A stretch of 64,000 nucleotides of DNA, from NCBI GenBank assembly GCA_963695545.1, contig OY968796.1, forward strand, positions 3,712,001-3,776,000, given 5' to 3'. Shown here in pieces: positions 9,342-42,176 of the stretch; position 1 is the first letter of the stretch; the number at the start of each line of letters is the position of its first letter. Made by a program: the position numbers and the translations under genes. Source of the DNA: Terriglobia bacterium (GTDB taxonomy: Bacteria > Acidobacteriota > Terriglobia > Acidiferrales > UBA7541). The notes beneath the pieces are model-generated. The model was not told the origin of the DNA and searched no databases. It saw nothing but the letters and a program-made list of their open reading frames with translations.

Positions 9342-9413
9342 CTACTCAGGCCTCCGCGAGCACGGCCGTACCTCGGCGTGATGATGGTGATGGCGATGTG
9401 CGGAGAGTCTCAT
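9342..9413 (-). CDS. hisL: his operon leader peptide MRLSAHRHHHHHAEVRPCSRRPE
   Basis: 6 His codons (5 consecutive) in a 23-aa ORF just upstream of a terminator and hisI. Confidence 0.9.
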   Translation of the reverse strand: MRLSAHRHHHHHAEVRPCSRRPE

Positions 9414-33847: not shown

Positions 33848-35200
33848 ATGGCGCGAGAACGACTACTAGTCATCGGAGGCGTGGCGGCCGGAATGAGCGC
33901 GGCGAGCCGCGCTCGCCGCCACGATTCCAATCTCGAAATCGTGGTCCTCGAGCAAGGCTCGGACGTCTCCTACGGCGCGTGCGGACTTCCCTACTACATT
34001 TCCGGCCGCGTAGCCGAGGCGCACGACCTCGTAGTCTACACGGCCGATTTTTTCCGCAAGAATCGCGAGATCGACGTCCGCTTGCGCCACAAAGCCGTCG
34101 GCATCGAACCCGGCCGCCGCGCCGTGCAAGTGGAAGCCGAACACGGCCAAAAACTCGAATTGCATTACGACACCCTAGTGCTCGCGACCGGCGGCGCCGC
34201 GAAGGAAACCGTGCCCGGCTCTGAGCGCGAGAACGTATTCACGTGCGGCGATCTCGCTTCCGCCGTTCGCCTGCGCGATTTTCTCGACGCGAAAAAGCCG
34301 CGCCGCGCCGCAATCATCGGCTCGGGTTACATCGGCCTTGAAATCGCCGATGCCCTCGTATCGCGCGGCCTTGAAGTCACCATCCTCGAGCGCTCGGACG
34401 CCGTAATTGACGGGCTCGAGCCCGAGATCGCCGCCGAAATCGAGCGCGTGCTCGCCACGCACGGCGTCGCTCTTCTGAAACGCGCGCCGGCCAAGCAAAT
34501 CACGGGCTCCGCCGGCGGCGTGGCGACAACCGTGCAGCACGGCTTGGCGGGAACTCTGCCGACGGACCTTGTGATTCTCGCCACCGGAATCCGTCCGCGC
34601 ACGGCGTTAGCGGTAGCGGCTGGAATCGCTCTGGGCCGCACCAGCGCCATCGCCGTGGACGACGCGATGCGCACAAATATCAACGGAATATACGCGGCTG
34701 GCGATTGCACCGAAGTGCAGCACTTGGTTGCAGGCACGGCCGCATATCTTCCCCTCGGCACCACGGCGAATAAGCAAGGCCGCGTCGCCGGAGAAAACGC
34801 CGCCGGCGGACGCGCGCGATTTCCAGGCGTGGTCGGAACGCTCGTGACGCATCTGTTTGAACTTGAGATCGGCAAAACGGGGCTGTCGTTCGAGCAGGCT
34901 CGCGGCTACGGATTCGATGCCGCAACCGTCGCCATCACCACGGTCTCGCGCGCGAAATATTTCGGCGGCAAACCGCTCCTCGCGAAAATCGTGTGGGATA
35001 AACCCACAGGTCGCTTCCTGGGCGCCCAGTTCGCTGGACAAGACGGCGCCGCGAAGCGCGTCGACGCCGCGGCGATGGCCTTGCAAGCGCGAATGCGCGT
35101 AGCCGATCTTTTATATTCCGACCTCGGCTACGCGCCGCCCTTTGCGGGAGTGTGGGAAGCGCTGCTAATCGCCGCGAATGAAGCGATGAAGCAAAAGTAG
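33848..35200 (+). CDS. FAD-dependent pyridine nucleotide-disulfide oxidoreductase (CoA-disulfide reductase/NADH oxidase family)
   Basis: IGGVAAGMSAA, redox Cys in SYGACGLPY, GSGYIGLE, YAPPF. Confidence 0.92.
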   Translation: MARERLLVIGGVAAGMSAASRARRHDSNLEIVVLEQGSDVSYGACGLPYYISGRVAEAHDLVVYTADFFRKNREIDVRLRHKAVGIEPGRRAVQVEAEHGQKLELHYDTLVLATGGAAKETVPGSERENVFTCGDLASAVRLRDFLDAKKPRRAAIIGSGYIGLEIADALVSRGLEVTILERSDAVIDGLEPEIAAEIERVLATHGVALLKRAPAKQITGSAGGVATTVQHGLAGTLPTDLVILATGIRPRTALAVAAGIALGRTSAIAVDDAMRTNINGIYAAGDCTEVQHLVAGTAAYLPLGTTANKQGRVAGENAAGGRARFPGVVGTLVTHLFELEIGKTGLSFEQARGYGFDAATVAITTVSRAKYFGGKPLLAKIVWDKPTGRFLGAQFAGQDGAAKRVDAAAMALQARMRVADLLYSDLGYAPPFAGVWEALLIAANEAMKQK

Positions 35201-35459: not shown

Positions 35460-36068
35460 CTAGTTCGCGCGCGAGAACGCCGGAACGTAGAGCGACGCTG
35501 TTTTTTGCAGATCGGCGAGCGCTGCCAGCACTTGCTGGCTGTGCCCCGTGGGATTAACGGCGATGAATTCTTTGACGATCACGCCCTCAGGATTGATGAT
35601 GAAGGTGTTCCGCGAGGCGTGCACGAAAGTGCCGTTGGTGGCAAGCGAACCGTATTTGGCGGAGACTTCATGCGCGACATCAGCGAGGAGCTTGAAGTTC
35701 AGGCCCTCCTTCGCGCAGAAATCTTTGTGCGAGTCAGACGTATCCACGCTGACGCCGATGACCACGGCGTTGATCTTCGCGTACTGGTCGATGTCGGTCT
35801 GGAAGCTGTGCGCTTCAATCGTGCAGCCGGTGGTGAAATCTTTGGGATAGAAATAGAGCACCACCCACTTGCCGCGAAAATCTTTTAGCGAAGTGGGCGT
35901 GCCGTCCTGCGAATTTAGAGTGAATTCGGGCGCCTTGGTGCCCTCGGCGGGAGGCGCGGCGGTGGGTTGATCGTCGGCGCGAACGACAGCGAAAGCGAAC
36001 AGCAACAGCGCTGCGGACAGCGCCGACAACACAGCGGCTCGTGCGCCGCGGCTTGAAACGTTAGTCAT
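35460..36068 (-). CDS. bcp: peroxiredoxin (BCP/PrxQ) with N-terminal signal peptide
   Basis: VLYFYPKDFTTGCTIEA, R.TFII; hydrophobic leader ending VRA-DD; AGGAG RBS. Confidence 0.9.
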   Translation of the reverse strand: MTNVSSRGARAAVLSALSAALLLFAFAVVRADDQPTAAPPAEGTKAPEFTLNSQDGTPTSLKDFRGKWVVLYFYPKDFTTGCTIEAHSFQTDIDQYAKINAVVIGVSVDTSDSHKDFCAKEGLNFKLLADVAHEVSAKYGSLATNGTFVHASRNTFIINPEGVIVKEFIAVNPTGHSQQVLAALADLQKTASLYVPAFSRAN

Positions 36069-36101
36069 AGAAGTTCTCCTTTGCGCCAATAGTATGGACC
36101 T

Positions 36102-39100
36102 TCACCAGAGCAGTTTCAAACCGAACTGAATCTGGCGCGAGGTCGTGGTGGTCGAGGAGATGACTCCGGCGGTGGGCGAAAGCGCCGTGGCCGATGTGAA
36201 GATCACTGGGTTGGGCTCGTTGAAATTGGCGTGATTCAGAATGTTGAAAAATTCGGCGCGGAATTGCAGCGCCAGCCGCTCTTTGATTGGGAACTTGCGG
36301 TCGATGGAAAAATCGAGCGACGTGAGGCCCGGACCCGTGAGCGAATCGCGCCCGGCGTCGCCGTAAGTGCCAGCGACCGGAGCAGAGTACGCTGCGGGAT
36401 TGAAATATTCGTTGGGCTCGCCGAGGATCTTGGAGCCGGAGAACGACGGATTGATGTTGGACCGCACAGGGTTGCGCGTATCGCCGTCGTTCGTCGGGTT
36501 GTAGCCGAGTTGCGGCGTGAACGGAAAGCCGCTCTGAATGGTCAGGATGCCGCTCGCCGACCAATCTTCGGCGAGGCGATCGAGGAGAGCGTGCGCGGCG
36601 TCTGCGGCTCCGGCCGCATGCTTGAACGGCAGCGCCCATGTGCCATTCAAGACGGCCGAATGCGTGGCGTCGAAAGTAGACCGGCTCCAATCGGCGCTGG
36701 GATCGAGCGGATTCGCCGTGAACGCAGGCGAGCTGGTGGAAATGCTGGTGTTCACGGTGTCGCCGTCGTCCTCGCTTTTTGAATAGGTGTAAACCCCGCG
36801 GAATTGCAGGCCGTGACTGAAATTGCGGCGCAGATCCACTTGCAGCGCGTTGTAAGAGCTGTCGCCTTCGGAGAACCACGACGTGGTGTTGGCCACGGCG
36901 GAATTCGCGAGCGGCGAGCCGGCGGCGATGTATTCGGTTCCCGCGGGGAGCGATGCGCAAGCAGCGACGGCGGAGTCTGGGCAGAAGACCGGAACCGGAA
37001 CGTTGGCGTCGATCGAAAGCAATTCGTGATAGCCGTGCGAGCCGACGTAACCGACGCTGAGCGAGGTGCTGAGCGAAAGTTGCTGCTCGATTTTCAGCGA
37101 GTAGGATTCGACGGTCGGCGTCAAAAGATTTGGCTGAACGCCGGAAGGCGAGATCAGCGCGCCGGCGGGTAACGCGCCGCCCGGCATGATGGGAGTGTCA
37201 CTCGAAAGCGGCTTGCTCTTGATGGTGTACACGGTGTTGTACGGCCCGTTCTGATCGGCGCGATAACTCAAATTATCGAGCAGCGCGTCGTAGACGCCGA
37301 AGCCGCCATCCACCACGGTTTTGTGCGAGCCGAAAGGAGACCAGGAGATTCCCACGCGAGGCTCGGGCAGGAATTTTGCGTTGTTCACCGCGAGCAGAGA
37401 ATTTCCGACCGTGGGAGTGGAATCGATCACGCCGTCGGTGAAATCATAATTCGAGGCGCGGCCGCCCTGTTCGTTCCACCCGTTGGTCGATTCGGCGCGA
37501 AACGCCAGGCGCACTTCGAGATTTGGACGCAGCTTGATCACGTCTTGCGCGTAGTACGCCGCTTCCAGCGAGCGCCAGCCAAGCGGCGTGGGAGTGGGCG
37601 CGACGACGAAACTCGAAACCGTGCCCTGCAGGAAAGTGGTGAGCGAGGTGAACGTCGCCGAGCCGTATTGATCTTGAGCGAGTTCATCGTTGGCCTGAAG
37701 ACGCTCGAACCACACGCCGAGCTCGATCAGATGATTTCCGTGAGTGATCGTCACCTGATCTTCCTCGGTGAACAGATTGCGCACGGCGTGCAGATTGTCT
37801 CCGGCGTTGGTTCCAGCCGAGGTGATTGCCGACGGAGAATTCGGCGCCGTGCTGCCGCCGACGACCACGACGCCAATCGGCTCGCCGGTGACGAAGCCGG
37901 GCAGATCGATGAGCGAATCGCCATTGAAATAAAACGCGGCGCGAGAAAAGCCGACGGTCGCTTTGTTGAGAACGGACGGAGAAAACAAATGCGTTTCGGA
38001 AAGACTCAGCACTTGCTCGCGCAGCGATTCGGTGTCGTAACTGAGCGGATCGGCGGTGGGCGTGTTGTCCGCGCTATCGTCAATTGTGTAGACGATGTCG
38101 GAACTGTCCTTGGCCGAAGACGTGTGGTCCAAACGCGCGGTGCCGAAATCTTCGCGAATGGCCTGCAAAGGATGGCTGAAATCTTCGGCGATGCCGCAAC
38201 CGAGATCGGGTCCATTGGCGACGGGCCAAAGTGCGAGCAGCGGCGCGACGCTTGGGGCGACGCCGACGTGCGTCAGCGATGTAGACGACGTGCTGGGGCA
38301 AGCGGAAGGAACGTAACCCTGCAGCGCTTCGGCGTCGGGAACGAATGTGACGTCGCTCACGCCGAGGTGCTGGCGGAAACCTTCGTAGTTGGCGAAGAAG
38401 AAAGTTTTGTCTTTTTGGATCGGGCCGCCCAGCGCGCCGCCGAAAACGTTGCGCTCGAACGGCGGAATCGCGCCCTGATCGAAAAAGTTGCGCGCGTCGA
38501 GATCGCTGTTGCGCAGAAATTCGTAGACGCTGCCGTGCAGTTCATTCGCGCCGGATTCGGTGACGATGTTCACTTGCGCGCCGGGCCGCTTGCCGTACTC
38601 AGCACCGTACGTGTCGGTGACCACGGCGAATTCGCGCACGCCATCGACGCCCAGCAATTGGCCGCTTGCGCCGCCGGGAGTGTTGTCGATTTCGGATGCG
38701 CCGGTGAATTCGACGCCGTTCAGCAGGAATAGATTTTCCTGCGGCCTGCGGCCCGAGACGGCGAACATGTTGCCGACGACGGAGTTCGATGTGCCGACGG
38801 TGCCAGAGCGCTCGGCGGAATAATTCACGATGCCGGGGTTGAGAGTGATTAACTGATCGTAGCTGCGGCCGTTCAGCGGCAGATCCTTCACTTGTCGCTC
38901 GCCGACCAAACCCGATGGCTCGTCGGTCGATACGCTGACGACAGGATTGGTATCTTGAACTTTTACAACTTGCTGAACCGCGCCGACGGCGAGCGCCACG
39001 GTGACTTCACGGCGCTGGCCGACGACGAGCGTGATGCCCGAGCGGTCTTCAGGCTTGAAGCCCGGCTTCGTGATCGTGACTTCATAGTTGCCGACCGCCA

Positions 39101-39383
39101 GCGCCGGAGCGTCATAACGGCCCGAGCCATCCGTAATGAGATTGCGCGCAACGCCGGTCTCAAGGTCCGTGACCGTGACAGTTGCGCCCGGCACCGCGGC
39201 GCCAGTGGAATCGGTAACCGCGCCCCAGATCGAAGACTCGCCGACCTGGGCGCCCGCGCCCGTGGCCCAGCCGAAAAGCAGCGCCAGGAGAGCGAGCAAA
39301 ACCGCGACAATTTGCAGCTGATCTACTCTTGTTTCTCTGCTGCTGCGACGACTTCCATTGAATCTTATAGTTCTCGCGCTCAT
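36102..39383 (-). CDS. TonB-dependent receptor (Oar-like); start uncertain
   Basis: LPLNGR, AEYGK, LHGSVYEFLRN, C-terminal RQIQFGLKLLW. Confidence 0.93.
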   Translation of the reverse strand: MSARTIRFNGSRRSSRETRVDQLQIVAVLLALLALLFGWATGAGAQVGESSIWGAVTDSTGAAVPGATVTVTDLETGVARNLITDGSGRYDAPALAVGNYEVTITKPGFKPEDRSGITLVVGQRREVTVALAVGAVQQVVKVQDTNPVVSVSTDEPSGLVGERQVKDLPLNGRSYDQLITLNPGIVNYSAERSGTVGTSNSVVGNMFAVSGRRPQENLFLLNGVEFTGASEIDNTPGGASGQLLGVDGVREFAVVTDTYGAEYGKRPGAQVNIVTESGANELHGSVYEFLRNSDLDARNFFDQGAIPPFERNVFGGALGGPIQKDKTFFFANYEGFRQHLGVSDVTFVPDAEALQGYVPSACPSTSSTSLTHVGVAPSVAPLLALWPVANGPDLGCGIAEDFSHPLQAIREDFGTARLDHTSSAKDSSDIVYTIDDSADNTPTADPLSYDTESLREQVLSLSETHLFSPSVLNKATVGFSRAAFYFNGDSLIDLPGFVTGEPIGVVVVGGSTAPNSPSAITSAGTNAGDNLHAVRNLFTEEDQVTITHGNHLIELGVWFERLQANDELAQDQYGSATFTSLTTFLQGTVSSFVVAPTPTPLGWRSLEAAYYAQDVIKLRPNLEVRLAFRAESTNGWNEQGGRASNYDFTDGVIDSTPTVGNSLLAVNNAKFLPEPRVGISWSPFGSHKTVVDGGFGVYDALLDNLSYRADQNGPYNTVYTIKSKPLSSDTPIMPGGALPAGALISPSGVQPNLLTPTVESYSLKIEQQLSLSTSLSVGYVGSHGYHELLSIDANVPVPVFCPDSAVAACASLPAGTEYIAAGSPLANSAVANTTSWFSEGDSSYNALQVDLRRNFSHGLQFRGVYTYSKSEDDGDTVNTSISTSSPAFTANPLDPSADWSRSTFDATHSAVLNGTWALPFKHAAGAADAAHALLDRLAEDWSASGILTIQSGFPFTPQLGYNPTNDGDTRNPVRSNINPSFSGSKILGEPNEYFNPAAYSAPVAGTYGDAGRDSLTGPGLTSLDFSIDRKFPIKERLALQFRAEFFNILNHANFNEPNPVIFTSATALSPTAGVISSTTTTSRQIQFGLKLLW

Positions 39384-39501
39384 GATCCCCGGTCTCCTTG
39401 GGCGTCCGTAGCGCACACGTTCGAGTGTGCGGATCGTTACAGCTTGGCTTTTGGTTTGCGGCAGGCCCTTGGGGTCTGCCAACTTCGGACGGACTACTTA
39501 A

Positions 39502-39588
39502 CTAGAGGAGACAACGACAACAGCAACAACAACAGGCCGAGGTTGCCTGCCGGAGAGAAGAAACGCGGGAAGTGGATATACGTATCAT
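39502..39588 (-). CDS. poly-cysteine leader peptide MIRISTSRVSSLRQATSACCCCCCRCLL
   Basis: 28-aa ORF with 7 Cys codons (6 consecutive) between a consensus-like promoter and the TBDR gene. Confidence 0.82.
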   Translation of the reverse strand: MIRISTSRVSSLRQATSACCCCCCRCLL

Positions 39589-39607
39589 CGCAGCAATCTA
39601 CAAAATA

Positions 39608-39636
39608 ATTTTACGGAGCGTCGAAGTTGTAGTCAA
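39608..39636 (-). promoter_or_regulatory. sigma70-type promoter upstream of poly-Cys leader
   Basis: TTGACT-N17-TAAAAT. Confidence 0.75.
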
Positions 39637-39701: not shown

Positions 39702-42176
39702 CTAGGCTCTGCGGACGGCCATGCCGGTGTGCGCGTCGACGAGCTCAAAGACTTTAGGATTGGCGCAGACTTCGTAGTAGGCGCGCGCGCTGGCGGGGCC
39801 GATGCGGCCGTCCGGCAAGAGCTGGCGAACCTGGCCTTTGCGGATGACGATGGGCTCGAGGCCATCGCCGATGGGAACTTCGCCCCAATAGAGCGTGATG
39901 CGCTCGCGGGCCCACGGCATTGCGCAATCGATTTCGGCGGGCGTTAGCGCAATCTCTTCACTGAGCTTTTGGAATCCTTCTTCATTCAGCTCGATGCCGT
40001 TCAGATTGAAGCGAATCAATAGTTCATCGGCTTCTTCTTCGACCGCGCCTTCGAGAACGGTTTGAAACAGGAACAGATTGAACAGCGACGCTTGGTGCGC
40101 GAGCAGCCGGCGCGCGAGTTTCGAGCAACTTGAGAGGCGATCGGAAAGATTGAGTGCGCGGGAAATCATGATGCGCGAATCGGCGTCCACCCAATAGGTC
40201 GGCGCAGAACCCTGATAGGCGATGCCCACGCCGAGCTCAAGGCGCGGAAGTTCTTTCGACTGCGCTTTGTCGTTATAGGCCTGGAGCACGGCCAGAATCT
40301 GGCGCGCCAAACCGCAGGACTTGGATACGGCACGTTGGCTCGAGCGATTGGCCTCGGTTTCAAAAATGGCCAGCACCAGCGCGTCGCCTTCGACGAAAAC
40401 TTTCGCGGCGCCGTAGCGATCGAGGATGCGCTTCACCGGCTCGTACAAGTTTATGCTGAACAGCGACGCGGGATTGAGGCCGCGCTCGATCAGCTCGGCC
40501 GTGATTTTCGTCGAGCCGCGCACGTCGGCCTTGATGATCGTGTGGGAAACGACCTTGTCTTCGACCGGACCGACTTCCTGCGGGAGCAGAAATTCAAACA
40601 GGCTGTTGTTCATGCGCGAAATCTCGCGCGTTTTTTCGCTGCGCACCAGATTGACGCGCTCCATGGCCGCGGTCAGGCGGTCGTAATTCCTGAGGTCGCC
40701 GCGCAGGCGCATAAAATCCTCGGCGAAGCGCAGCGCAATGGTGCGGGCTTCTTCGCGCGAAGTTTTGCGCAGTTTCTTCGCGAGATCCTCGATGCGCTGG
40801 ACGGAAAACTGGCGCGCGGGAAATTGCTTGAGGATGTCCGCGACACGCTTCATTTCCTCGCGCGCGACGAGCGCTTTTTTGAGCTGCTGCAAGTGAATGG
40901 GCGGGCAGTAATCGTGATACAGATTCCGCAGCTGATAGCTGGCCAGGATATGAATCAGAAGATCGCGCTGCTCGAGACGCTCGATCCACTGATCGAGCAG
41001 TTTTCCGCGCATTTCCGCGCCACCGGGTCCATCGCCAGTGTAGCCAACGTCAAAAAGCCGCCGCGCGTTCTCCGATTGATTCAGAAAATCGCCCAGGCGG
41101 CCCTGATACTGTTCGGAAAGAAAATCGCTTCGGCGCTTGGCAGCGTCGATTTGGGGCGAGAGCGATTCGAGGCGCTCGCCGAGGCTGGTGATACGCCGCT
41201 CGACGTCGAGAAGCTCTGTGCGCGTGTCGGCCGGTGCGGAGCGCAGCCCCACACGCGAAAGCAAGCCATCGCCGCGATCGAACTTGCGGGCGAGCGAAGC
41301 GCGTTCCTGATCGAGACGCGCGAGCTCGGCGCGCGTGGTCAATGCAGCGTCCACCAGAGCTTGATTCTGCTTCAGCGCCTCGCCCAACTCTTCGCCCTGA
41401 TCGCCGGCCAGCACCGATTCGCGCAGGAAATCGAGCAGCAACGCATCGAAAGTCTCCATGCGATCTTGGTCGCGGAGGTAGTTGCCGAGCAGAACGTAAT
41501 GATCCAGGAACATCACATCGTCGCGGCCGCCTTCGACGAACGCGAGGCGATTGTTCAGAATTTCGTAGGCACTGGAATCTTCGCCGCCAAACAGGGCGCG
41601 GCGGGATTTCGAGAGCATGGATTCGTCAATTTCGGCCAGCACGGTGTAGAGATGCTGCCCGGCCTGGCGAAAGGTGTTGCGGCGGCCTGCCTGTAGTTCG
41701 GCCAAGCGCGCTTTCATCACGTGGGCCTGCTCGCTGCGCTCGAAATATTCGCCGCGGCTGCGAATCCACTCTTTGCCTTCGAGCACCAGATTGGCGAACT
41801 GCGCGGAGATTTCCTGGGTGAGGAACTTCACGATGGCCACGCGGGCCAGAACGTCGATCTCGATATTCTTTTCGTACTTGGCGCGGGTGAGCGCGGCTTG
41901 CAGCAGATCGGTGAGCTGCTTTTTCCAGGCGCCGGTTTCAAGAGGACGAACGGCGCGGCGGTCCGTTTGAGCCAGGAACGCGAGCTGCGTGCTTTGGCGG
42001 ATGAATTCGAGAAGGTAGGCGGCGGACGTTTCGATGAAGCGCGGGCTCAGGAAAACATCATGATGAATATTATCGACACCAACGGCGAGCGAGCCGAGCG
42101 TGAGATCTGCGGTATAGGGAATCAGATTGATTCGCGCAGGGTTCAGGCCCGCGGTTAGAGACATATTTTCGGGCAT
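39702..42176 (-). CDS. large coiled-coil protein with C-terminal class III nucleotide cyclase-like domain
   Basis: IKADVRGST, EGDALV, LGVGI, ALNLSDRL resemble cyclase catalytic motifs. Confidence 0.7.
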   Translation of the reverse strand: MPENMSLTAGLNPARINLIPYTADLTLGSLAVGVDNIHHDVFLSPRFIETSAAYLLEFIRQSTQLAFLAQTDRRAVRPLETGAWKKQLTDLLQAALTRAKYEKNIEIDVLARVAIVKFLTQEISAQFANLVLEGKEWIRSRGEYFERSEQAHVMKARLAELQAGRRNTFRQAGQHLYTVLAEIDESMLSKSRRALFGGEDSSAYEILNNRLAFVEGGRDDVMFLDHYVLLGNYLRDQDRMETFDALLLDFLRESVLAGDQGEELGEALKQNQALVDAALTTRAELARLDQERASLARKFDRGDGLLSRVGLRSAPADTRTELLDVERRITSLGERLESLSPQIDAAKRRSDFLSEQYQGRLGDFLNQSENARRLFDVGYTGDGPGGAEMRGKLLDQWIERLEQRDLLIHILASYQLRNLYHDYCPPIHLQQLKKALVAREEMKRVADILKQFPARQFSVQRIEDLAKKLRKTSREEARTIALRFAEDFMRLRGDLRNYDRLTAAMERVNLVRSEKTREISRMNNSLFEFLLPQEVGPVEDKVVSHTIIKADVRGSTKITAELIERGLNPASLFSINLYEPVKRILDRYGAAKVFVEGDALVLAIFETEANRSSQRAVSKSCGLARQILAVLQAYNDKAQSKELPRLELGVGIAYQGSAPTYWVDADSRIMISRALNLSDRLSSCSKLARRLLAHQASLFNLFLFQTVLEGAVEEEADELLIRFNLNGIELNEEGFQKLSEEIALTPAEIDCAMPWARERITLYWGEVPIGDGLEPIVIRKGQVRQLLPDGRIGPASARAYYEVCANPKVFELVDAHTGMAVRRA

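Follow-up and report, generated by a model that had tools for sequence, protein, structure and literature searches.

As far as our literature search found, leader-peptide cysteine sensing has been shown in mycobacteria alone. For Ms5788A, masking of a downstream Shine-Dalgarno (SD) sequence, with no termination, was shown by mutation, according to the accessible part of the report (Canestrari et al., 10.1101/834739). Comparative genomics also predicted terminator-less cys leader peptides of Actinobacteria, with E. coli tnaC cited in the available portion of that study (PMC1262725). The leader analysed here lies on the minus strand of a 64,000-nucleotide stretch of acidobacterial DNA (the window, in whose numbering coordinates are given unless a locus is named). 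As far as the accessible text describes Ms5788A and the mycobacterial poly-Cys leaderless small ORFs, the window leader shares with them its place as the first ORF of the transcript, a length of ~90 nt, a terminal Cys run, a spacer of ~100-120 nt, the lack of an intrinsic terminator and a leader RNA complementary to the downstream SD. It comes from another phylum, and no sequence match to Ms5788A was found with a short query of little power; the mycobacterial start is leaderless, whereas a 5′ UTR of 4-14 nt is predicted here. Moreover, in the part of the Ms5788A report available, the Cys codons themselves do the masking, whereas here the masking blocks flank the Cys run. An outer-membrane transporter as target, a fixed 18-19-codon lead-in, a module formed by the motif GTAGTCCG and hairpin P2, and tandem forms occur only here. 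Judged from its sequence, the window leader would work like Ms5788A, yet we do not class it as a member, given the lack of homology and the leaderless start of the mycobacterial system.

With the E. coli trp and Salmonella his attenuators, as covered in the accessible part of 10.1101/834739, and with the terminator-type Cys leaders of Acidobacteriota, the leader shares a short ORF in which regulatory codons follow one another and complementary segments that can alternate. It also shares an SD-less, short UTR with the his and sat leaders of its own genome. The trp/his-type attenuators differ by the U-tract behind their hairpin, which no homologue here possesses, and the RNA model R2 matches 0/5 loci of the terminator-type Cys leaders. 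The actinobacterial cys leaders and tnaC, so far as the available portion of their description goes, have in common with it a Cys run near the stop, no terminator and pyrimidine-rich stretches, and differ in that covarying hairpins and SD complements are present here and the spacer is not C-rich.

A sequence-only reading of the window had proposed a cysteine-sensing attenuator at this site, and the elements it named (promoter, 28-codon ORF, pairing segments, both hairpins, AAGGAG and ATG) are all present as described on the minus strand. The sigma-70-type promoter, TTGACT-N17-TAAAAT (39608..39636, -; -35 at 39636-39631, -10 at 39613-39608), matches 10 of 12 consensus positions, and one such site was found where 0.3 are expected in shuffles. 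Transcription is predicted to start at ~39601, giving a 5′ UTR of ~13 nt without an SD sequence; the conserved -10 lies 19 nt 5′ of the ATG, which implies a short UTR. A second -10-like hexamer, TAGATT (39600-39595), sits 6 nt 5′ of the leader ATG, and through it the transcript could conceivably start leaderless. The leader ORF (39502..39588, -) encodes MIRISTSRVSSLRQATSACCCCCCRCLL followed by a stop codon; 18 codons precede the Cys run, and seven codons specify Cys (six TGT, one TGC). The run TGT TGT TGT TGC TGT TGT CGT TGT (39511..39534, -) is the predicted sensor.

Two blocks in the leader are predicted to pair with the ribosome-binding region of the transporter. The upstream pyrimidine block aSD1 (39552..39564, -) falls where we infer that a second, queued ribosome would sit, whereas aSD2, GTCTCCT (39506..39512, -), is spelled out by the last Cys-Leu-Leu codons and is the exact complement of the transporter AGGAGAC. 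Hairpin P1, (CGG)CAGGC/GCCTG(TTG), spans the first Cys codon (39530..39552, -). Past the stop come the conserved motif GTAGTCCG (39490..39497, -), 13 nt beyond the last Cys codon; hairpin P2, TGGCAG...CTGCCG (39459..39481, -), behind which comes an A/C-rich linker instead of U; and hairpin P3, CGCACAC/GTGTGCG (39412..39431, -), whose register varies among subtypes. The SD region of the transporter, AAGGAGAC, lies at 39392..39399 (-), with AAGGAG at 39399-39394 and the ATG at 39383 (-). In addition, CGGCAGGC (39552-39545) is complementary both to GCCTGTTG (39537-39530) and to GCCTGCCG (39466-39459). No U-tract follows either downstream hairpin, as had been noted from the letters alone; the sole terminator-like match at the locus consists of the hairpin inside the ORF and the Cys codons that come after it. 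Whole-leader folding was no better than that of shuffles (z -0.79), and Rfam returned no match in the leader at E below 7 and none at gathering score in 14 loci. The window leader peptide matched no Pfam or NCBIfam family, and 0/8 leader peptides matched NCBIfam at E 0.01, a search to which a 28-residue query lends little power.

Among 7,493 intergenic ATG-started short ORFs of the 4.16-Mb genome, two contain at least five Cys in eight codons: the window leader and one 5′ of ATP sulfurylase. Other Cys runs (eight places inspected of 63 matches) came from coding genes read antisense or off-frame, or were start-less. The sat leader (G000:C1:210802-210924, +) has 13 Cys, a GC hairpin and a U-tract terminator, stands 5′ of an ATP-sulfurylase/TauE operon, and is kept with its terminator in 5/5 genus genomes that have ATP sulfurylase (L295-L299). 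The window also holds a his leader, encoding MRLSAHRHHHHHAEVRPCSRRPE and a stop (9342-9413, -), with a promoter TTGACG-N17-TAATCT and no SD; a GC hairpin with U-tract terminator (~9320-9285) follows, 5′ of hisI- and hisG-like genes recognised from motifs by eye. It is a classical his attenuator with the same SD-less short UTR. Both the his and sat leaders of this genome thus do have a U-tract, unlike the window leader.

The window leader is part of a module, made up of promoter, in-frame ATG, Cys run, GTAGTCCG and a covarying hairpin, that recurs in 21 additional leaders, drawn from two genera and from metagenomes. At every locus that extends into the downstream gene, that gene is an orthologue of the same TonB-dependent transporter. 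Within the genus, four of the five other genomes hold transporter orthologues (70-87% identity) and all four keep the leader; the fifth, without an orthologue, is 66% complete. A strict DNA pattern matched 7/401 family genomes, five of the genus and two without the module, and missed the second genus; RNA models built from known modules found it there in 11 genomes, each time 5′ of an orthologous transporter (56-62% identity). A metagenome pattern scan, covering 23 of 64 parts, gave seven true modules among 119 loci, the other 112 not being the module; six of the seven are new, five of these lying 5′ of the transporter and one ending at a contig edge. The module is absent from 63 other loci with orthologues at 45-64% identity, and R2, run over these and five terminator-type loci, gave a best E of 0.74. 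In 150 class genomes R2 produced 23 matches at E 0.01, and 0/7 loci outside those already examined were the module. Left out of all counts are L047 and L165, whose leaders are identical to a locus already counted, L341, an out-of-frame second copy, and L337 and L340, which lack the module.

The frame of these leaders is conserved: stops interrupt it in 0/21 homologues, while the other two frames contain stops in 18 and 4 of them, and it stays open in 21/21 although leaders show no relationship to one another over their first ten codons. The sequence-only reading had suggested looking for Cys runs with synonymous variation upstream of orthologous transporters, and such variation was seen: Cys codons in the 21 homologues are TGT 89 : TGC 12, while the long ORFs of the genome use TGT at 22%. 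The lead-in before the Cys run measures 18-19 codons in 19/21 homologues, a figure that is partly circular, since among several in-frame ATGs the one giving 17-23 codons was chosen; in the window genus, the chosen ATG is usually the first past the predicted start. The -10 box lies 10-20 nt from the ATG in 20/21 homologues, TTGAC and TA...T are preserved in 20/21, and the stop codon varies among TAA, TAG and TGA.

These data bear directly on whether the open frame is fortuitous and the tract a mere (TGT)n microsatellite or structural RNA repeat. The tract is nearly pure TGT and can wobble-pair in any register with two downstream motifs, and the frame is lost in one G162 copy and in one second uORF of G085, as a repeat would allow. 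Set against this, frame, start, stop and length are preserved across two genera with 0/21 stops in frame, and the broken G162 and G085 copies may be decay or assembly errors, the latter because several transporter genes in the same assemblies are also frameshifted. The conservation of frame, start, Cys run and length across homologues largely refutes the microsatellite reading, to which we give hardly any probability. The outcome that had been named as contrary to a sensor, a tract off-frame or missing in close orthologues, did not occur, and the conserved poly-Cys leader is, by its sequence conservation, very probably a cysteine sensor read by the ribosome through the leader peptide. In the second genus, six genomes have, between leader and transporter, a second, intact uORF that ends in Cys and possesses an SD of its own (L390, L391, L393, L394, L395 and L397), a tandem arrangement also found in a metagenome locus (L227:1-320); the second uORF ends in RRCC or RCRRCC and is off-frame in G085.

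Arrest peptides of the CruR/CutF type have an export helix, a CxxC and a RAPP-like arrest ending. A peptide of this kind, sensing metal or redox state itself or through its thiols, would suit a metal-importing transporter with a neighbouring peroxiredoxin and disulfide reductase: the Cys-rich peptide lies 5′ of a TonB-dependent transporter, molybdate genes lie near relatives, and a peroxiredoxin and a CoA-disulfide-reductase-like gene adjoin. The export helix, the CxxC and the RAPP-like ending are found in none of the 22 leader peptides, however; the Cys codons are the last ones and their residues would still be within the ribosome, the residues ahead of the run are not conserved while the nucleotides are, codon choice is heavily skewed to TGT, and twin leaders precede cysteine-synthesis genes. 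We therefore consider peptide-borne metal or redox sensing very improbable, and return to a sensor of cysteine supply.

Hairpin conservation was examined in the alignment of homologues. P1 is paired in 96% of cells, with one pair changed on both sides. P2 is paired in 90% of cells over 14 sequences, with two-sided changes in 10 cells (1/500 shuffles as high), and P1 and P2 together in 88% over 10 sequences, with 13 two-sided changes (0/500 shuffles as high); pairs with two-sided changes are no more numerous than in shuffles, and kin inflate these cell counts. The motif GTAGTCCG stands 13 nt from the last Cys codon in 14/15 leaders, independent of the stop codon, and 10-11 nt from it in tandem forms. 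The Cys tract is able to wobble-pair in any register with GTAGTCCG and with the 5′ arm of P2; in the latter case a stalled ribosome would cover the tract rather than free it. The long alternative pairing CGGCAGGC/GCCTGCCG, named in the sequence-only reading, is present in the window but restricted to its subtype, and this 8-bp pairing is not among the helices retained in at least 80% of 10 homologues.

How the sensor acts on the transporter is best approached through the pairing of leader codons with the SD, which was absent from that earlier account and best discriminates between mechanisms. aSD1 occupies codons 9-13 and has the same potential pairing region as aSD2, and the aSD2 sequence GTCTCCT is retained in 5/5 leaders of the window's subtype. 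Other subtypes have different SD sequences and different leader complements: the cognate leader/SD pairs include GTCTCCT/AGGAGAC, CTCCCTGTC/GACAGGGAG and GCCCTCC/GGGGGGC, and TTCCTCTCAG/CTGAGAGGAA switches to GTCCTCTCA/TGAGAGGAC in another subtype. Across 11 subtypes, the pairing of each leader with its own SD summed to -147.5 kcal/mol against a mean of -121.3 (3/20,000 permutations), over a stretch that begins 31 nt ahead of the first Cys and ends 13 nt past the last, the cover of two stalled ribosomes; two sub-windows gave 25 and 304 of 20,000, all three permutation windows having been picked after seeing the data and the subtypes drawn by us. An earlier permutation with seven subtypes gave 585/5,040, which became 2/720 without the locus that has an intervening second uORF and 43/5,040 when the SD of that uORF was used. 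In the tandem form L395, the cognate leader/SD pairing is nearly nil.

On these grounds, translational masking of the transporter ribosome-binding site is the output we favour, and hold to be probable. With ample Cys-tRNA, ribosomes would run off the 28 codons and leave the leader RNA naked; hairpins P2 and P3 would then bring it near the start region 118 nt distant, where aSD1 and aSD2 could pair with AAGGAGAC-GGGG and turn the transporter off, with Rho polarity possibly following. When Cys-tRNA is scarce, a ribosome would dwell on the TGT codons and a second would queue on the 18-codon lead-in, so that both masking blocks would be covered by ribosomes and the transporter translated.

Folding with and without a ribosome footprint, a check that had been proposed alongside the attenuator, gave a mixed picture. 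Typical footprint limits of -15/+13 were used. Opening the window SD costs 5.7 kcal/mol in the free leader and 1.2-3.3 with late stalls or queued ribosomes, bearing in mind that blocking any sequence lowers such energies. A single ribosome on the first Cys codons leaves the SD shut (6.8 and 6.1 vs 5.7 free), and the masking model therefore needs late stalls or a queue. In G003, the folding model has the SD open without any ribosome (0.7 kcal/mol). Shuffled leaders mask about as well: in the window's subtype the leader/SD duplex is no stronger than theirs (19-67/100 shuffles as strong), and in full-context folding no more than 2/20 shuffles masked the SD equally well in just 2/10 homologues. 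In these models a queue or late stall lowers the opening cost, the single footprint gives a mixed result, and the folding models on their own are equivocal.

SD masking explains neither the GTAGTCCG motif nor P2, and two other outputs of the same cysteine sensor deserve weighing. Intrinsic termination is not one of them, as P2 is followed by AAACC and no U-run occurs in the 127 nt past the stop in 18/21 homologues, the remaining three having a U-run at +62 to +111, away from P2. In Rho-dependent termination, transcription would end at or after P2 once ribosomes clear a C-rich site. The genome has a rho gene, in the window's subtype the 54 nt of leader ahead of the Cys run are rich in C and poor in G (C 19-22, G 8-13), and the fixed-distance motif and the strong hairpin with its A/C-rich tail could be pause or loading elements; Rho was also proposed earlier for the actinobacterial cys leaders that lack a terminator (PMC1262725). 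This proposal was rated weak by those who made it, so far as the available portion goes, and the one case tested proved translational, according to the accessible part of 10.1101/834739. At this locus, a C-rich, G-poor, unpaired loading site past the stop is missing, the C-rich stretch lying solely inside the ORF; in the 118-nt spacer C scarcely outnumbers G (C 37, G 33), and the spacer bears two hairpins and is largely paired. The pyrimidine blocks, moreover, follow the SD sequence of each subtype, which a Rho site would not need. We regard Rho as the output with some reserve, as rather unlikely.

Alternatively, GTAGTCCG and P2 could form a nuclease site or barrier dependent on ribosome position, so that the output would be mRNA processing or decay. 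This would suit a motif that is conserved in sequence, lies just past the predicted ribosome edge (13 nt in 14/15 leaders) and has merely weak, wobble-rich partners in the Cys codons, and the genome has an RNase E/G gene. Processing or decay leaves the leader/SD covariation unexplained, and we judge it improbable. Masking of the ribosome-binding site remains the preferred output, and its ribosome-queue form lends itself to direct reporter tests, thanks to the constant length of the lead-in and the existence of tandem leaders.

The gene behind the leader (36102..39383, -) encodes a 1093-aa outer-membrane barrel resembling TonB-dependent transporters (PF13620 and PF25183). Its structure model (mean pLDDT 85.3) has the plugged β-barrel fold, in support of what had been read from the letters, with FusA and YddB as best fold matches (E 2.7e-30 and 5.1e-29); identity to solved transporters is 12% at best, a PDB sequence search gave merely weak FepA and N-terminal-domain matches, no NCBIfam family was matched and the fold assigns no substrate. 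An in-frame extension of the ORF to 39482 was rejected, since a stop interrupts it in G003. Almost all named records of related transporters come from Acidobacteriota, in line with the organism type first proposed, and the closest (86%) comes from Candidatus Acidiferrales.

Poverty in Met is read as a sign of a protein made under sulfur limitation (sulfur sparing); our literature search on the subject returned fungal papers only. The mature part of the transporter has 2 Met in 1047 residues, and the protein is lowest in Met and in total sulfur among 24 paralogues in the genome (median Met 0.94%). Seven leader-bearing orthologues have 1-4 Met per protein, against 3-14 in 51 leaderless ones, excluding matches under 900 residues or containing stops; these Met-poor orthologues are kin of one clade and not independent cases. 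The poverty is weaker in eight leader-bearing transporters of the second genus (2-6 Met), and 8 Met occur in a leaderless member that nests within the leader clade. The suggested link to sulfur limitation is strengthened by this Met poverty and by the twin Cys leader that precedes ATP sulfurylase. If the masking model is true, the Met-poor importer would be a sulfur-scavenging channel.

The neighbours of the orthologues point to oxyanions. Molybdate-type genes (HTH-TOBE regulator, modA/modB, HTH-PBP and a small molybdopterin-domain protein) lie within 5 kb of 30/63 leaderless orthologues vs 0/27 paralogues, a strict count that drops antisense artefacts of a looser one (32/63) and whose queries were taken from the same loci. 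An XdhC and a MobA-like gene lie downstream of the nested leaderless member, and an HTH-TOBE gene downstream in 2/11 second-genus leader-bearing loci. In a FastTree phylogeny, the molybdate-linked clade is sister to the leader clade and does not contain the window transporter. Among sulfur genes, none adjoins the transporter. Searches of the genome for an inner-membrane partner gave no SulP and no TOBE match, a single SBP_bac_11 protein and a weak match to a sulfatase, and thus no partner. As oxyanions, sulfate and molybdate closely resemble each other. The cargo is probably a sulfur source, with sulfate, thiosulfate or a small organosulfur compound most plausible; given the likeness of the two anions and the molybdate genes near relatives, a sulfur oxyanion is our best, if tentative, guess, and the cargo may also be an organosulfur compound or molybdate destined for sulfur-related enzymes. 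The leader-bearing transporter suggests a way for oxyanions of sulfur or molybdate to cross the outer membrane, and its leader offers a lead to the function of one of the two dozen anonymous TonB-dependent transporters in each such genome. Separately, 30 loci (within L040-L096) define an Acidobacteriota TonB-dependent transporter clade linked to HTH_17-TOBE regulators and modABC, a candidate outer-membrane importer of molybdate or tungstate of which our literature search found no obvious description.

The peroxiredoxin gene downstream (35460..36068, -), of BCP/PrxQ type with a signal-peptide-like N-terminus as judged by eye, had been placed under the leader together with the transporter. This is doubtful: it has its own promoter-like site, TTGAAA-N17-CATACT (36091..36119, -), opposite-strand genes separate it from the transporter in 2/5 genus genomes, and in the second genus it is not adjacent. 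Its -10-like hexamer reads CATACT or TACTAT in 7/7 loci compared, and it directly follows the transporter in 5/7 loci where this is visible, opposite-strand genes lying between in the other two. Some control by read-through is plausible, because sulfur starvation induces peroxiredoxins in Pseudomonas, as the accessible part of PMC12581299 reports, and such control is not a conserved part of the system. The wider likeness to the Pseudomonas LsfA and SftP systems, taking LsfA from the same accessible text, is a TonB-dependent transporter predicted to be on at sulfur shortage with a peroxiredoxin nearby; here the transporter is of PF25183 type, unlike SftP, and the peroxiredoxin is BCP/PrxQ-like rather than LsfA-like. 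SftP of Pseudomonas putida is reportedly a TonB-dependent receptor induced by sulfur starvation. Both SftP and LsfA are under transcription factors.

Around these genes, a CoA-disulfide-reductase-like flavoprotein gene (33848-35200, +) converges on the peroxiredoxin in all five genus loci. The inserts between transporter and peroxiredoxin (L034:8776-9306 and L033:7518-8351) are unrelated opposite-strand genes, one of which encodes a ThsB-type TIR protein. On the other side of the leader, 39702-42176 (-) encodes an 824-aa protein without a Pfam or NCBIfam match, whose C-terminal part, by eye, we take to resemble a nucleotide-cyclase domain.

Cys leaders extend well beyond this module. A generic pattern of promoter plus four Cys codons occurred in 21/401 phylum genomes vs 4 control matches, and in 55/401 order genomes vs 2 control matches; among loci inspected from it, 9/20 (phylum) and 18/27 (order) are Cys leaders. 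The Acidobacteriota Cys leaders (L255, L261, L262, L264-L267, L270, L272 and L309-L330) mostly have U-tract terminators, and their targets resemble sulfite reductase, cysteine synthase, TauE, YeiH, peroxiredoxin and a dicarboxylate/amino-acid (SDF) symporter, assignments of which some were profile-checked and several score below curated cut-offs. Our literature search found no paper on Cys leaders in Acidobacteria, including in the accessible parts of PMC1262725, PMC2965389 and PMC13236596, with subscription journals thinly covered. The terminator-less, likely cysteine-sensing leader family of two genera is real, and a conserved translational version in a dominant soil phylum, beside the terminator type in the same genome, would widen the class considerably. 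More speculatively, and with the odds against it, the whole might be a cysteine attenuator built for a ribosome queue, in which the fixed 18-19-codon lead-in keeps a second ribosome over the SD-masking block, and which is chained in pairs in some relatives. It would gate TonB-dependent importers of oxyanions, an undescribed family of Acidobacteriota with one branch tied to molybdate and the other turned into a Met-poor sulfate/thiosulfate scavenger, within a phylum-wide cysteine ribulon with transcriptional and translational outputs in one cell.

Some further loci bear on Cys leaders. Many relatives have one at the sulfite-reductase-like gene, but for that gene of the window's genome (G000:C1:3169230-3171485) the short-ORF list contains none that convinces. 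In genome G902, from another family of the class, a leader ending in six Cys codons without a visible U-tract (L368:1500-2480) lies 5′ of a rhodanese gene; a rhodanese gene is also a target type in the Ms5788A operon, going by the accessible part of 10.1101/834739. Finally, in the second genus the transporter leader has a divergent dienelactone-hydrolase-like gene upstream of it (L387, L388, L389 and L397), and a similar-looking gene lies upstream of the sat leader (G000:C1:209938-210684), hinting that the transporter and sat Cys loci were once linked.
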